40,222 bases of DNA from a virus. Its lineage: Duplodnaviria; Heunggongvirae; Uroviricota; Caudoviricetes. This document shows, piece by piece, positions 15,014 to 28,418 of the stretch (within the stretch, counting starts at the first letter, position 1; each line of letters starts with the position of its first letter). The notes under the pieces were generated by a model. The model had not been told where the DNA came from. It did no database searches and saw only the letters and a list, made by a program, of their open reading frames with translations. The stretch lies in the IMG/VR virus record IMGVR_UViG_2778261638_000008. One strand, written 5' to 3'. The translations under genes were made by a program, and so were the position numbers.

Positions 15014-15263
15014 CTTTCAGATCGGCAATCAGCTTATCTTTATCAGCAATCTGCGCTTGCAGGCCGTCGACAATGGGTTGCAGATCATCGGTGTCGCTAA
15101 TCACGCTTTCGGAAATCTCAGAGTGCGCCTGGGTGAACCAGTGCGACGCGACCTCTTCCGGTACGTTATGTCGTCCCCGGCCAAACTCCTGTTTTGACTG
15201 ATCGCCGAGCGTCAGCGTAAACGGGGTGTGAACATGGATGGTAACCAGTTTTTCTTTCGCCAT
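14895..15263 (-). CDS. Hypothetical phage structural protein (about 122 aa)
   Basis: Track ORF 14895-15494 overlaps the capsid gene; internal start MAKEKL at 15263 with SD AGGAAA is more plausible; coiled-coil C terminus. Confidence 0.4.
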
Positions 15264-15277
15264 TTCAGTTTCCTTCA

Positions 15278-15293
15278 GGCCCCTTTCGGGGCC
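15278..15293 (-). terminator. Stem-loop (GGCCCC-UUUC-GGGGCC) downstream of major capsid gene; possible attenuator
   Basis: Perfect 6-bp GC inverted repeat with 4-nt loop between capsid stop (15304) and next start (15263); no U-tract, so likely a partial terminator or stability element. Confidence 0.4.
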
Positions 15294-15303
15294 ATTCTGG
15301 TTA

Positions 15304-16245
15304 TCAGATACCGTCCACATAGGACAGAGTTTCTTTATACACTGGCTCGACTGCACCCAGCTTGCCGTAGTAAGTGACGATCTGATACAGACCGCGATAC
15401 TGCACCGGCACGCTCTGAAGCGGAACCAGCGGGTAACGGACGTATTTTTTATCGTTGGTGTACGCAACCATGCGATCCTTATTCCCCACACCACGGCCTT
15501 TCAGCCATTTAACCGCGCGGATATTCAGCGGAACACCGTTCTGGTGATAGCTGATGGTGTTGGTCTGAAGGTACGTCAACAGGGACTGGTTACCCGCAGA
15601 TGAAACGATGATGCTGGACAACAGAGCAAACTGCTCAGGCGGGATCAGCAAATCACGCGGAACCACAGAGTAACCAGAAGCGGCCCACGCATCAGACAGC
15701 ACCTGGTTAATGCTTGCACGGATTTCGTCCGGTGTTGAGGTTGCCCACGTTTTGGCAGCGTTGTTGACAGGCACGCCGTCCAGGGTAACAAGGCCTTTCA
15801 GGTTTAATGCGGAATCGCCAACATATACCTGTTCATCGTTATCCATCTGCCATTTCAGTTGCATCCCGTCATACTTCTGCGTATCAATCGGGCGGCCGAC
15901 CTGCTGAGCAGCCTGCAATTCTATGACCGTCCAGCCAAGTTCCATCCCCCACAGGTTCAGCGGGTTACCGGATTTGCCGGTATCCACGTTCACGCCAGCA
16001 ATAGCGGTTGAGTCTTTGCCTACCCAGTTTTTGCCATTCGGATTTGCACCAGTACCCGCAGCGGCGAAGCTGGTATTCGTCCAGCTGGAAATGTCATCTG
16101 CGATAGAGACATCTTCACGCAACTGAATATCGCGGGTCCAGGTGTACCCCACCAGTGGCAGGTGCAGCGTCTGGTCGAGTCGCTCCAGCTCCCCGATGAG
16201 AAAGGCACCAGAGCTGTCAACAGTTGCCTGATCAAAAGTAATCAT
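15304..16245 (-). CDS. Major capsid protein
   Basis: 313 aa, follows scaffold/protease and decoration-like genes; followed by a GC hairpin. Confidence 0.6.
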   Translation of the reverse strand: MITFDQATVDSSGAFLIGELERLDQTLHLPLVGYTWTRDIQLREDVSIADDISSWTNTSFAAAGTGANPNGKNWVGKDSTAIAGVNVDTGKSGNPLNLWGMELGWTVIELQAAQQVGRPIDTQKYDGMQLKWQMDNDEQVYVGDSALNLKGLVTLDGVPVNNAAKTWATSTPDEIRASINQVLSDAWAASGYSVVPRDLLIPPEQFALLSSIIVSSAGNQSLLTYLQTNTISYHQNGVPLNIRAVKWLKGRGVGNKDRMVAYTNDKKYVRYPLVPLQSVPVQYRGLYQIVTYYGKLGAVEPVYKETLSYVDGI

Positions 16246-24126: not shown

Positions 24127-24441
24127 TTATCTTACCTTGATGCCTGATGCCGTCAGATGTTTACGACAGTCCTGAATACCTTCGTTATAACCCGCATCGT
24201 AGAAGCTATCCGGCTTTGCCTTCAGCGCAGGAAGCGTAACGCTGGTAGCTCTTCGTTCGGCCAGAACACCTGCCTGAAAGAGTGTCCACATCAACTGAAC
24301 TGCTGAATCACAGTAAGTAACATCTTCACTGTACAATTCTCGTTCAATCCTGATGCCAAGTTGAGCCTTCATTGAAGGCGCCAATATTACCTTTGACCTG
24401 CAACGACAGGTCTGGGTACCTCTGTTCCATGAAGCTTTCAA
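24127..24441 (-). CDS. Hypothetical protein downstream of Q
   Basis: Track ORF 104 aa; an internal start (MKAQLGIRIE..., about 81 aa) is more plausible. Confidence 0.4.
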   Translation of the reverse strand: MKASWNRGTQTCRCRSKVILAPSMKAQLGIRIERELYSEDVTYCDSAVQLMWTLFQAGVLAERRATSVTLPALKAKPDSFYDAGYNEGIQDCRKHLTASGIKVR

Positions 24442-24500
24442 ATCTGTTGCGAACGCTGATCAGAGCCATCTGGTTCCCTTACGTGATTGATTGCTGGATA

Positions 24501-24923
24501 TTATGCCGCCGAGCAGCTCCTACGCAAAGTCCTGATAGCCTGAGGCTTTGACTGAACCGACTGATCCATTTCGAGCACCACATCCAGCATGGCTAAGCAA
24601 CCGTCAATAAATCCCTCTGCCGCCTGAAGCCTCTTCAGAACGTGGGTGTGAGATACGCCGAGCTTCTCACCCATCGCCCGCACGGGCATGGCCTGGACGT
24701 AATGCCACTCAAGGAGCGTGCACAGATACGGATCTTTTTTCTTCAGGCAGCTCATAGCGGAGTTGATGATAAGACCGTCATTGTCACTGCATTTCAGCCT
24801 TCCAGACTGCGTTGCGGGTAGCAGATTCTTAAACCCGGCTGCAACAGGAGGAAAGTAGACGCTACCACCTTCACTCGCTGCCCAGCCCCCCCAGCGCTCT
24901 AAAACCTGTTGAATATTACGCAT
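24501..24923 (-). CDS. Q: Late gene antiterminator Q (phage 82/21 Q family)
   Basis: 140 aa; N-terminal VLERWGGWAA and central Cys-containing region match remembered Q/QuuD-family proteins; positioned upstream of lysis cassette. Confidence 0.75.
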   Translation of the reverse strand: MRNIQQVLERWGGWAASEGGSVYFPPVAAGFKNLLPATQSGRLKCSDNDGLIINSAMSCLKKKDPYLCTLLEWHYVQAMPVRAMGEKLGVSHTHVLKRLQAAEGFIDGCLAMLDVVLEMDQSVQSKPQAIRTLRRSCSAA

Positions 24924-25051
24924 AGCTCTGACCTCTACGTTTTGCTACGAAAAAATTTTCTGAGAACTACGTCTGTTTATCCGTGGGTGTGGATAACGCA
25001 GTTCCGATTCACATATTGCATGTATCAACATGCAAAAAGTTGCTAATGCGG

Positions 25052-25243
25052 AGTGGAACCACCTGCCCCCACCTGGAACCACCTTTTCCTAACCTTTCCC
25101 TCAATCGACTTATATATATATATGGGGTTTCTAGTAGAAAGGCGGTTCCAGTGGTTCCAGTGGTTCCGCCCCGCTTGCCACAAGGTCTGCAAGGTGGAAC
25201 CACCTTCTCTTTTAGGTGGTTCCGCGTGGTTCCAGCGGTTCCC
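25052..25243. repeat. Iteron-type replication origin: at least 9 copies of GGTTCCA/TGGAACC in both orientations flanking an (AT)n tract
   Basis: Repeats at about 25052-25063, 25073-25084, 25141-25169 (three tandem GTGGTTCCA), 25194-25205 and 25214-25243, with alternating TATATATATAT at about 25111-25123; immediately downstream of primase-helicase gene. Confidence 0.75.
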
Positions 25244-27398
25244 AAACCTTGCATTTTTTCCCCCCAATTCGCCTTTGGACACGCTTATACCCGCAATTTT
25301 GCAAAACATTACTAATTCGCATTTCTTCGCGTTTTCCGATGCGGTCAGGATTTAGCCCAATCGCATCACGCAAAACATCACTTGCGCGTAAAAATTTGCA
25401 ATTTCGCGGAAGTTCATTAGTCATCAGGTCTGGCGTGTCGAGCCATTTCTCTACCGTTTCAAGCCAAGCATCCTTGATGGTGTACTGTTCATGGACACTC
25501 GCTGCCAGTTGTTCAGCCTCACGGAACTGGATACCCCCCAGACGCTGAAACACCTCACGAGCCTCAGCCCAAAGTAAAAGGAGATCTCTTTTTATCGCTT
25601 TCACGTCGACTTTCGACACTTCCACGGGGAGCCAGCGACGGTTACCAGTCTTGTCCGCAAGGAATTCGTCCTCATTGGTGGTACCAACGAACACCAGGCG
25701 ACGAGGAAACTGGGTGGCGAACTCCCGGTATTTCGGGATCCAGTTTTCGTGAGTACGCGTCACAAACGCTTTGATTGACTCCAGCTCTTTGGTATTAAGT
25801 CCGCGCAGTTCACCAATCTCTGCCACCAGCCGACCACGCATTTTTCGAGCGAGATCATCGTCTTTTTCGGCAAAAGAGATTTCAGTAAAAAACGCAGGAT
25901 CAGGGCTCAGAGCCTCCACTCCGGAAGACTTACCGCAGCCCTGCGGACCAACGAGGATAGGCACCATATCCGCTTTGATGCCTGGCTCCAGTACTCGCCC
26001 CGCCAACGCGGTCCACATGTACATAGACACCGCACGGGTATAAGGCGTGTCGGCTGTACCGAAGTGCGTATGGTAGAAACATTCGATGCGCGGCACGCCA
26101 TCCCACTCCAGTCCGTTCAGCCAGGTGATCGCTGAATCGAATGGTTGTTCATCGGCTGCAAGTAACACCACATCGCGAATAAGTTCACGACCAACAGGTT
26201 TAAATCCCCGCTTTTCCATCGTGATGCGCAGGCGCGCATAATCCGCATCGGTGAATGCCTGCCATTGTCCGGATCCTGCAGGGGCAAACATGATTTCGTC
26301 GCGGAACTGGTCAAAGCGAATATCGATGTCCACAAAATCAGGGCGTACTACTGCTTTGGCTGCGTTGCTGATGGTTGCCTCGATACGCCCCCATTTATCA
26401 CGCTCGAAAGCAGGCAGCGGTAAAGGTTCCGCCACTTCGGTGCTGGTCAGATCTTCGAAATCGTCGTTGCGGATCCCGATGGCATTAAGGAAATCTCCGT
26501 CATCACGATGCGCACAACTGGCATGCAGGCATTTAAAATGCCCCTGCTCAAAGCCCGCGGTTCCCGCAGGAAAATAAACTGTGCTTGTTGGATCGCCCCC
26601 GCTACTGTGGCCGTCTTCAAACGGACAGCGGATATATCGTTCACCATTTGCGCCATCCAGCAGCGTCCAGCCATTGGCATCAAGATATTCAGCTGTATCA
26701 TCCGTCGCGCCGGGCGTGAATGCTGAACGGTCGCGCATCTTCGTGTTGCCCGCTTCGGTGGTTACCGACACAGGGAGTTGTTCAGCCAGGCGCTGCCACA
26801 GCGTTTCAAGCTGCTCACCTGTAATAGCCGGAGGTTCATCCGGCAAACCACCGTCCCATTCAATACGCGCGCCGCTGCTGTGCGTACCACAGGCAACGAA
26901 CTGCTGCCCGTTCGCCAGCAACTCGATAATGCCCATATCCCCCGCCAGGCGATGGATACGCTTACGGAAATCACCATCAACGGCCAGCAGATACAGACAC
27001 TTATTACTGTTTGCTCGCCAGCGTCGCGGCGGCAACTCACCCAGAAGTTGCACAAGCGTTTTGCGAATATCTGCCTGAATGTCTTCATCTTCGCTATCAC
27101 AGTCCAGCGCCAGCCAGCCATGGCCTGTACGCACGCAGATGCCATAATCCGGTTCATTCGACCAGCAGGCAAAATCATGCTCAGTAACAACATGCCCGGT
27201 CCATTGAGCAATACCGGTGACCTGGCGGTCCCGGTTATAGCGACTCGGCGTCTTACCCAACGCTTTCAGTTTACTATCAGGGGATATGGTCGCACTGGGG
27301 TTACATACAACTGGGAGAAGATGAGCAGTCCGCCCCAATACCAGGTCGAAATGAAACCACTCATCAGGCGTAGCTCCCCATGGTTTGCTATCGGACAT
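25212..27398 (-). CDS. Replication protein: N-terminal PrimPol-like primase fused to D5/P4-type helicase
   Basis: 728 aa; Walker A VGPQGCGKSS; N-terminal acidic catalytic-like motif LALDCDSEDED and IELLANGQQFVACGTHSSG resemble PrimPol domain. Confidence 0.8.
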   Translation of the reverse strand: MSDSKPWGATPDEWFHFDLVLGRTAHLLPVVCNPSATISPDSKLKALGKTPSRYNRDRQVTGIAQWTGHVVTEHDFACWSNEPDYGICVRTGHGWLALDCDSEDEDIQADIRKTLVQLLGELPPRRWRANSNKCLYLLAVDGDFRKRIHRLAGDMGIIELLANGQQFVACGTHSSGARIEWDGGLPDEPPAITGEQLETLWQRLAEQLPVSVTTEAGNTKMRDRSAFTPGATDDTAEYLDANGWTLLDGANGERYIRCPFEDGHSSGGDPTSTVYFPAGTAGFEQGHFKCLHASCAHRDDGDFLNAIGIRNDDFEDLTSTEVAEPLPLPAFERDKWGRIEATISNAAKAVVRPDFVDIDIRFDQFRDEIMFAPAGSGQWQAFTDADYARLRITMEKRGFKPVGRELIRDVVLLAADEQPFDSAITWLNGLEWDGVPRIECFYHTHFGTADTPYTRAVSMYMWTALAGRVLEPGIKADMVPILVGPQGCGKSSGVEALSPDPAFFTEISFAEKDDDLARKMRGRLVAEIGELRGLNTKELESIKAFVTRTHENWIPKYREFATQFPRRLVFVGTTNEDEFLADKTGNRRWLPVEVSKVDVKAIKRDLLLLWAEAREVFQRLGGIQFREAEQLAASVHEQYTIKDAWLETVEKWLDTPDLMTNELPRNCKFLRASDVLRDAIGLNPDRIGKREEMRISNVLQNCGYKRVQRRIGGKKCKVWEPLEPRGTT

Positions 27399-27401
27399 GG
27401 G

Positions 27402-27602
27402 TTAAGCCTTTTGTCTAGCTGTCACTTTCTGAAAAAGTTTTTCTATCGCACGTACTGTAGAAAAGCGAGGGTCAGAATGAACCCCGGTAAGAAGCCGACT
27501 AATAGAAGACTGCTTCACGCCTGCAATTTCGGCAATTTGGTTTTGGGTATACCCTGAATCAATCAAGCTTTTGACCATCTCTTGTGGTGTTAGTCCGGAC
27601 AT
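27402..27602 (-). CDS. cro: Cro-like HTH regulator
   Basis: 66 aa; HTH segment YTQNQIAEIAGVKQSSISRLL; divergent from CI across a 141-bp operator region. Confidence 0.65.
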   Translation of the reverse strand: MSGLTPQEMVKSLIDSGYTQNQIAEIAGVKQSSISRLLTGVHSDPRFSTVRAIEKLFQKVTARQKA

Positions 27603-27743: not shown

Positions 27744-28418
27744 ATGATTGATACTACCGATATCCTTTCTCAAAACATCAAGTACCTGATGGACAAAGCC
27801 AAGATAAGCTCGATAACTGAGCTGGCACGTCGGTTACAGCTGAACCAACCAACGCTACACAGGCTGGTATCAGGAGAGGTGAAAGATCCGAAATACGCAA
27901 CGTTAAAGCAGATCGCCGACTACTTCCACGTGTCACCAATAGACTTGGCAGAAAGGAGCCTTCAAGAAATGGAGAAAGAGGACGCGACAGGTATAAAAAC
28001 GTATATTTCTCTTAGGTTTAATAAAGTACCTGTTTTGGGAAACACTCAGCTAGGCGTTGGAGGACTTTGGAGCGACACCCAATATTCAGTAGGTAGCAGT
28101 GATGGTTTCATATACTGGCCGACAAAGGATGAAGATGCATACGCCCTGAAATGTGTTGGTGATTCAATGATGCCTAGAATCAAAGAGGGGGAGTTCGTAA
28201 TCGTCGAACCCAACCACGACTACACTCCTGGTGATGAAGTACTTGTGGTTACCCGGGACGGTGAGGTCATGGTTAAAACCTTCTTGTTCGAACGCGATGG
28301 CCTGTTCCATCTAATGTCTGTAAATGAAGATCATCCACCAGTCAGAGTACCACGCGAAAACATTGAAAAAATCCATTACGTGGCGGGGATCGCCAAATCC
28401 GCGCTACGTATGTACTAA
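27744..28418 (+). CDS. cI: CI-like repressor (N-terminal HTH, C-terminal S24 LexA-like autopeptidase)
   Basis: 224 aa; HTH near N terminus; C-terminal GDSMMPRIKEGEFVIVEP ... VVTRDGEVMVKTF contains the Ser/Lys dyad context of S24 peptidases. Confidence 0.85.
   Translation: MIDTTDILSQNIKYLMDKAKISSITELARRLQLNQPTLHRLVSGEVKDPKYATLKQIADYFHVSPIDLAERSLQEMEKEDATGIKTYISLRFNKVPVLGNTQLGVGGLWSDTQYSVGSSDGFIYWPTKDEDAYALKCVGDSMMPRIKEGEFVIVEPNHDYTPGDEVLVVTRDGEVMVKTFLFERDGLFHLMSVNEDHPPVRVPRENIEKIHYVAGIAKSALRMY

Follow-up and report, generated by a model that had tools for sequence, protein, structure and literature searches.

A probable iteron-type replication origin beside the gene for a PrimPol-VapE initiator in a temperate Escherichia coli prophage, and the covariation of its iterons with a predicted wing of that protein

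Replication origins built on repeated initiator-binding sites are known from several kinds of replicon. In the iteron plasmids of the Rep_3 type (pSC101, F, R6K, RK2 and P1), the sites for the initiator lie beside an AT-rich unwinding element with a DnaA box nearby; they are direct repeats of 17-22 bp, and the Rep protein, composed of two winged helices and devoid of helicase and primase domains, relies on the host DnaA, DnaB and DnaC. The iterons of ori-lambda are about 19 bp long and form part of the O gene itself; the O protein reads them with its N-terminal domain and recruits the host DnaB through P. This origin sits in the early right operon, where it is crossed by transcription, and among the lambdoid phages the O protein and its iterons coevolve as specificity types that are exchanged between related phages. 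In the satellite phage P4, the iterons are short octamers (TGTTCACC) in both orientations, which are distributed over two separate cis sites, ori and crr, placed kilobases apart, and the alpha protein has a DnaG/TOPRIM-type primase and a D5/SF3 helicase. P4 alpha combines in one polypeptide the primase, the helicase and a C-terminal winged-helix domain that binds the origin (PMC2777425). The Rep proteins of the SaPIs are self-loading helicase-initiators, whose C-terminal winged helix binds penta- or hexanucleotide iterons; 6-12 such iterons are found immediately downstream of rep, and the origin has an AT-rich centre with at least two iterons on each side pointing in opposite directions (PMC9371898). 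The design recurs in the PICIs of gram-negative bacteria, where the rep-ori segment of EcCICFT073 drives the replication of a plasmid, and the authors of that study regarded it as unique to PICIs (PMC6092414). Our literature search found no paper on the origin of the prophage family considered below.

The DNA analyzed here is a stretch of 40,222 nucleotides (hereafter the window), which corresponds to a complete, integrated, temperate prophage of E. coli of about 40 kb with head, tail, lysis, Q and CI/Cro genes. Across the window and its RefSeq relatives, the virion genes include those for terminase, portal, head, tail and baseplate proteins, accompanied by genes for lysis, Q, CI/Cro and an integrase. 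Matches to the stretch 24900-25400 are present in 141 of 5,426 complete E. coli genomes, all of them chromosomal. The minus strand codes, in this order, for a Cro-like HTH protein (27402-27602), a 728-residue protein with PrimPol and VapE domains (25212-27398) and, after a gap of 288 bp, the antiterminator Q (24501-24923; Pfam PF06530), whose gene lies directly 3' of that for the 728-residue protein and is followed by the lysis, terminase, head and tail genes; a CI/LexA-like repressor gene (27744-28418) is divergent from this series. The leftward operon encodes a DUF2800 nuclease, an Enc34-type single-strand-binding protein, a family-A DNA polymerase, a SNF2 helicase and the integrase, and since a polymerase, a single-strand-binding protein and a nuclease are among these products, the phage supplies most of its own replication machinery. 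In the gap before Q, and running into the end of the preceding gene, is an array of short repeats that we regard, with good confidence, as the prophage's origin of vegetative replication, with the 728-residue protein as its dedicated self-loading initiator. The design of this origin is a known one; what this locus adds is a sharply bounded cassette that joins a protein wing to the iterons, and a correspondence between the two across related phages.

The 728-residue protein is matched by the Pfam families VapE-like (PF05272, E 2.3e-60) and Prim-Pol (PF09250, E 1.1e-09), with no further Pfam family at E <= 0.001 except for a sub-threshold DUF5906, and by PHROG 256 (DNA helicase) and PHROG 1156 (DNA primase). 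Its helicase domain (residues 394-656) is homologous to SaPI5 PriRep5 (phmmer, 7pds_A, E 1.1e-33); this structure was the sole return of a sequence search of the PDB, which detected no similarity in the C-terminal domain. For that region, an AlphaFold2 model of residues 568-728, built on a shallow alignment of 19 sequences (mean pLDDT 73), predicts a winged-helix domain at about residues 644-721 (25236-25469, minus strand). It displays an H-b-H-H-b-b topology, mostly at a pLDDT of 83-91 and at 73 in the last block, and comprises a helix at residues 672-680, a predicted recognition helix at 689-701 (KREEMRISNVLQN; 25296-25334, minus strand) and the two wing strands beta2 (704-711) and beta3 (714-721), which are encoded within 25236-25289 on the same strand. 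The top matches of this model in a Foldseek search of the PDB are mostly winged-helix domains, all of them weak (E >= 0.03), and neither P4 alpha (1KA8) nor the C-terminal domain of PriRep5 is among the 50 best matches listed. In two related loci (L019 and L068), the protein differs after ...WEPLEP and is extended (e.g., PKREGGSTLQAL), such that the stop codon lies about 34 bp nearer to the TA tract described below while the wing is intact, which shows that the post-wing tail is dispensable or free to vary. In one E. coli strain (NZ_CP148570.1), the replicase gene is annotated as frameshifted (a pseudogene) next to an intact iteron array, and the prophage is possibly replication-defective.

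The array stands out against the rest of the window. Nine of the 23 matches to GGTTCC in the 40,222 bp fall between 25055 and 25242, where 0.074 would be expected from the rate outside (Poisson P = 1.7e-16); it surpasses every other 6-mer of the window in clustering, and in 300 Markov-1 simulations the number of copies per 200 bp did not exceed three. Neither motif nor clustering searches found a second iteron cluster elsewhere in the window. The original prediction, made from the letters alone, had described at least nine GGTTCCA/TGGAACC iterons in direct and inverted orientation; the nine cores are there, with the full 7-mer confined to six of them. A better consensus is the 9-mer GYGGTTCCR, which has eight exact copies and one with a single mismatch in the array and two exact copies in the remainder of the window. 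A tenth, degenerate site (TGCCCCCAC, 25064-25072) lies in register between two good ones, and the nine good sites and the degenerate one, in both orientations and with a repeat unit of 9-10 bp, span -28 to +162 relative to the stop codon of the initiator gene. They fall into three groups. The outer array consists of reverse sites at 25054-25062, 25064-25072 (the degenerate one) and 25074-25082, with a period of 10 bp, and points away from the gene-proximal sites. The inner array is formed by GCGGTTCCA, GTGGTTCCA and GTGGTTCCG, arranged head-to-tail on the plus strand at 25142-25168 (starts at 25142, 25151 and 25160) with a period of 9 bp. The third, gene-proximal group has one reverse site (25195-25203) and three forward ones (25216-25224, 25226-25234 and 25235-25243), and the latter overlap the end of the initiator gene, namely its final ten codons and the region of its stop codon. 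That the array reaches into the 3' codons of this gene had been predicted, and stands: the segment 25215-25244 encodes the terminal residues WEPLEPRGTT, and hence the last three iterons are coding. Equally borne out was the suspicion that the overlapping ORFs listed in 24983-25355 are spurious. Four such ORFs exist, none of which has a PHROG match or an annotated CDS in RefSeq in seven related prophages, and their frames are disrupted by one-base indels between variants; the iteron array explains them, which is of use for annotation.

Between the outer and inner arrays is a spacer of 59 bp (25083-25141; 34% GC), which we propose as the site of melting and which holds TATATATATATAT at 25111-25123. 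By nearest-neighbour energy, no other stretch of 15 bp in the window is less stable than this TA run (rank 1 of 40,207). The original prediction had called it a typical DNA-unwinding element, for which, at 13-15 bp, the tract is short, most characterised unwinding elements being longer. Three reverse sites on one side and three forward sites on the other flank the AT-rich spacer, and this opposed layout is kept in nine of nine aligned iteron classes. In the nine-class alignment, a central block of about 55 bp (ACTAAGAACCCCATATATATATATAAGTCG..GGGAAAGGTTA) is conserved, and each class has its own core in the positionally homologous sites. Most related loci possess a TA run, which four of the scanned loci lack; in most of the 99 loci of the wider sample introduced below it is a (TA)4-8 run about 85-165 bp downstream of the stop codon.

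The only consensus DnaA box (TTATCCACA) in the 40-kb window lies on the minus strand at 24988-24996, 58 bp beyond the outermost iteron and inside a TTATCC-N8-GGATAA hairpin (24977-24996). Because about 1.2 such boxes are expected per window, its proximity to the array is only mildly unusual (roughly 1%), and it does not belong to the conserved origin core, as lineages with another downstream segment lack that stretch in the alignments; at this distance, the box leaves room for an involvement of the host initiator. Nearer to the array, at 25016-25035, is a perfect 8-bp palindrome, TTGCATGT-ATCA-ACATGCAA, at the outer edge of the variable cassette described below; other iteron classes have a similar imperfect palindrome around TTGCA...TGCAA, and it could be a protein binding site or an RNA hairpin. 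A candidate for the origin elsewhere in the window, the AT-rich DNA at about 32940-33000, was rejected: it is devoid of repeats, is contained in a low-GC reverse-strand ORF, and the gene content at this place differs in the prophage of strain M-17 (L110). The ORF (32554-33084, minus strand, 176 aa) has no Pfam match, is placed between the genes for the single-strand-binding protein and the DNA polymerase, and it is there that the window's DNA is least stable at lengths of 20-50 bp. At its position the M-17 prophage has genes for a Nmad5-family protein and a hypothetical protein, and since other genes take its place there, the region looks like an insertion hot spot for morons and not like an origin.

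The place of the array between the replicase gene and Q, all on one strand, also bears on the question of whether its main role lies in replication. No sigma-70-like promoter was predicted on either strand of 24400-25500, nor a terminator-like site on the gene strand; the sole terminator-like match in this region is an iteron palindrome on the antisense strand, and neither a promoter nor a terminator reading found support. An Rfam scan of 24300-25700 found no known RNA element, its only return being a sub-threshold chance match to c4-a1b1 inside the Q gene (E 0.24; a score of 17 bits, where the gathering score is 46.7). As neither a promoter nor a gene-strand terminator is predicted in the interval from the replicase gene to Q, early transcripts probably run through the array. 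Such an arrangement, together with the three to four sites on the 3' end of the gene itself, would suit iterons that are bound by the replicase for mainly regulatory ends, as a roadblock or operator that times the late genes or as a means of autoregulation, with the true origin elsewhere; the covariation of wing and iterons presented below would be compatible with this, too. We consider it unlikely, as the locus, with opposed arrays on either side of a conserved TA element of minimal stability, has the design that is proven for the origins of the homologous SaPI/PICI initiators, the array persists in lineages whose downstream sequence differs from the Q-proximal segment, and the window has no other iteron cluster to offer in its stead. 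Alongside the origin function that we favor, there may be a regulatory side-effect: it is possible that the initiator bound at the iterons also modulates Q expression as a secondary role.

A comparison of E. coli variants of this prophage delimits the part of the locus that changes. Seven variants align end to end, with near-identical flanks and a divergent block of about 280 bp at 25011-25292 that contains the wing codons and all the iterons, which we term the origin-specificity cassette. Within the cassette, the repeats keep their positions and orientations across the seven, the central TA element is likewise retained, and the core differs in every copy between variants, being GTGGTTCCA in the window (class A), GTTGGTACA in four loci (class B) and GTGGTAACA in two (class C), with two, three or four copies in the inner array. 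Compared with the M-17 prophage, the window is 68% identical in the cassette as against 97.6% outside it over 12.3 kb; in the regulatory and replication stretch of this alignment the cassette is the only sharply divergent block, the other divergent patch (15100-15350) being in a structural gene. The whole proteins of the three classes are 95-97% identical over 728 residues, with the differences concentrated in the last ~25. These alignments indicate that the cassette moves as a block between prophages that are otherwise nearly identical. A larger replacement is seen with respect to the isolated phages vB_EcoM-689R2, -611R5 and -606R2 (ON470582.1, ON470588.1 and ON470579.1), which are 96% identical to the window over 71% of 16000-40222, and whose replicase matches that of the window only in residues 1-407, at 52% identity; here the helicase/origin module has been swapped as a unit.

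To place these variants in a broader context we added 80 loci from IMG/VR and 22 from species-representative genomes, the latter from Trabulsiella, Pluralibacter, Pectobacterium, Xenorhabdus, Photorhabdus, Gilliamella, Orbaceae and the Burkholderiales; 99 related loci were usable. For each locus, the end of the gene was located and the dominant repeat was sought in the next ~300 bp by scripts. In nearly all 99, the stop codon is directly followed by a single short motif that occurs 5-12 times, in both orientations, and this site layout persists from Escherichia to Photorhabdus, Gilliamella and the Burkholderiales. Across the loci the core switches in all copies together, and at least 11 cores were recovered: GGTTCC, TGGTAC, GGTAAC, GGTTAC, GGATAC, GGGACA, GTTGTC, GTGGTC, GGTGGC, GGTGAC and a GTGTAG-type core. 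In class A, whose backgrounds diverge to as little as 71% protein identity, the iteron columns are 77-96% identical, compared to 32-82% for the rest. In seven of seven aligned class-A loci, those from distant backgrounds included, the middle outer site reads GGTGGGGGC in place of GGTGGTTCC, which suggests a conserved weak or non-binding spacer site. All that speaks for a functionless array, arisen by chance or from a slippage-derived tandem repeat, is that short repeats are generally frequent in intergenic DNA. This reading is effectively refuted by the clustering statistics (P of the order of 1e-16) and by the cross-genus alignments, in which the position, orientation and copies of the sites are conserved while the spacers diverge, and all copies change together.

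The switch of the core is matched by a change in the protein. Among the 23 motifs found in the beta3 strand, 22 occur with one core each. KK[CSR]K[VLI]W (KKCKVW in the window) goes with GGTTCC, K[MV][TV]RIF with TGGTAC, KLMKVW with GGTAAC, and both KVQRVW and KVSKVW with GGTTAC; likewise, KQQR[VI]F is found with GGTTGTC, KQIRVW with GGTGGTC and KKMRIF with TGGGAC. Only KVLKVW departs from this, as its arrays are a mixture of GGATAC and GGTTAC. It was seen in three loci, in one of which (L036, the others being L032 and L048) the gene-proximal sites are GGTTAC, the inner array GGATAC and the outer array mixed; such arrays may represent an intermediate stage of evolution in which the specificity for one position of the iteron is relaxed. 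The strand beta2 does not track the core, as a single beta2 motif, KRVQRRV, is found with six different cores, and beta3 is hence the better correlate. In permutation tests, the beta3 key x1x2 gave a purity of 0.92 (p 0.007), and the key made of x1 and the last two residues a purity of 0.875, which was reached by 0 of 5000 permutations; only such reduced keys are meaningful, the whole-motif keys (the last five residues of beta3 and the beta2 7-mer) being uninformative (p = 1). The E. coli variants have one and the same predicted recognition helix, which is slightly variable in more distant loci; being near-constant, it does not track the iteron class, and the class-specific residues sit in the wing. 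Nor is the variation of the wing a by-product of the repeats, as the wing codons, which lie upstream of the coding iterons, do not overlap them. Taken together, the covariation supports a role for the wing of the predicted C-terminal winged helix in iteron recognition.

It is also conceivable that the repeats are read by some other protein, such as the terminase small subunit (with the repeats as a packaging site), a partition protein, a recombinase or a repressor, and that the covariation merely reflects adjacency. The linkage of wing codons and iterons could give co-inheritance without function, and because the two lie within 100 bp of each other, linkage-driven co-inheritance is not fully separable from functional coupling. 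Yet the candidates for such a reader fare poorly. Cro (WP_000170998.1) and Q (WP_001244506.1) are identical between classes A and B, and TerS (WP_000162796.1) between classes A and C, which is evidence against any of these as the reader of iterons that differ between the classes; neither the scanned ORFs nor the complete M-17 prophage, as annotated in RefSeq, showed any partition gene, and the integrase gene is 13 kb away. Besides, within the regulatory and replication stretch, sharp divergence from the M-17 prophage is confined to the cassette, and KK[CSR]K[VLI]W stays paired with GGTTCC in backgrounds of 71 to 100% identity, in Escherichia, Trabulsiella and Photorhabdus, so that one wing motif keeps one core across genera even at a background identity of 71%. 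A reader other than the 728-residue protein is therefore, in our view, very improbable.

The original prediction of an iteron-type origin served by the adjacent PrimPol-helicase is thus supported in silico by the anatomy of the locus, the homology to SaPI5 PriRep5 and the covariation across the 99 loci. For its operation we infer the following course. The C-terminal winged helix of the initiator would bind the 9-bp iterons GYGGTTCCR, with the conserved recognition helix reading the constant part of the site and the beta3 wing strand reading the central bases that vary between phage lineages. Initiator hexamers assembled on the opposed arrays would bring the helicase rings together, upon which the TA tract would melt and the VapE-type helicase would load itself. 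The PrimPol domain would then lay primers, to be extended by the family-A DNA polymerase of the phage in conjunction with its Enc34-type single-strand-binding protein. The iteron group over the 3' end of the gene is probably an auxiliary loading or regulatory site.

When the cassette and the covariation are considered jointly, a more specific proposal presents itself, which we advance tentatively and rate just short of an even chance: the cassette would be a naturally swappable specificity block, in which six beta3 residues, and not the recognition helix, set the 9-bp iteron that is used. If this were true, these phages would have built, on a protein scaffold that hardly changes, at least 11 initiator/origin pairs that are orthogonal to one another, amounting to a compact, readable protein-DNA recognition code and a source of orthogonal replicons, and the KVLKVW loci with their mixed GGATAC/GGTTAC arrays would be promiscuous intermediates. 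The diversification of the classes could then have come from conflict among co-resident prophages, satellites and origin decoys, by way of titration or the cross-firing of origins. Quite apart from this, a probable origin and its initiator have been located for a lineage with matches in 141 of 5,426 E. coli genomes and relatives in several other genera, and the natural series of wing/iteron pairs offers a testable hypothesis on the base specificity of the wing of a winged helix, as well as a possible toolkit of orthogonal origins. A PICI-like replicon in a full prophage would also bear on the descent of satellite replicons.

With respect to the known replicons, the prophage locus resembles the Rep_3 plasmids in having repeated sites next to an AT-rich element with a DnaA box nearby, and departs from them in that its initiator has no Rep_3 domain in Pfam and its unit is of 9-10 bp and present in both orientations. 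It shares with lambda the coevolving types of initiator and iteron and, probably, an origin that is crossed by transcription. However, its 9-bp iterons are placed at and beyond the 3' end of the gene, their apparent reader is a C-terminal wing, with the variable residues in the last ~25 of 728, and the initiator brings its own helicase and primase in place of the host DnaB that is recruited by lambda O. P4 alpha is a functional analogue, and ori and crr resemble the main origin and the auxiliary iteron group of the prophage, whose protein has Prim-Pol and VapE domains instead, with no TOPRIM/DnaG or D5/SF3 family in Pfam at E <= 0.001.

The SaPI/PICI elements come closest, although they are satellites without virion genes of their own and the prophage is a complete temperate one of about 40 kb. 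Their repeat unit is of 5-6 bp as opposed to 9 bp, their C-terminal domains have no detected sequence similarity to that of the prophage protein, and the prophage differs further in the short AT-rich centre, a (TA)6-7 run in the 59-bp spacer, and in the additional 1+3 group of iterons that overlaps the end of the gene. The common thread is nevertheless plain: here, as in SaPI5 (PriRep5, PDB 7PDS) and EcCICFT073, a primase is fused to a VapE-type self-loading helicase, the origin follows immediately 3' of the gene with opposed short iterons around an AT-rich centre, and the specificity of the iterons varies from one element to the next.
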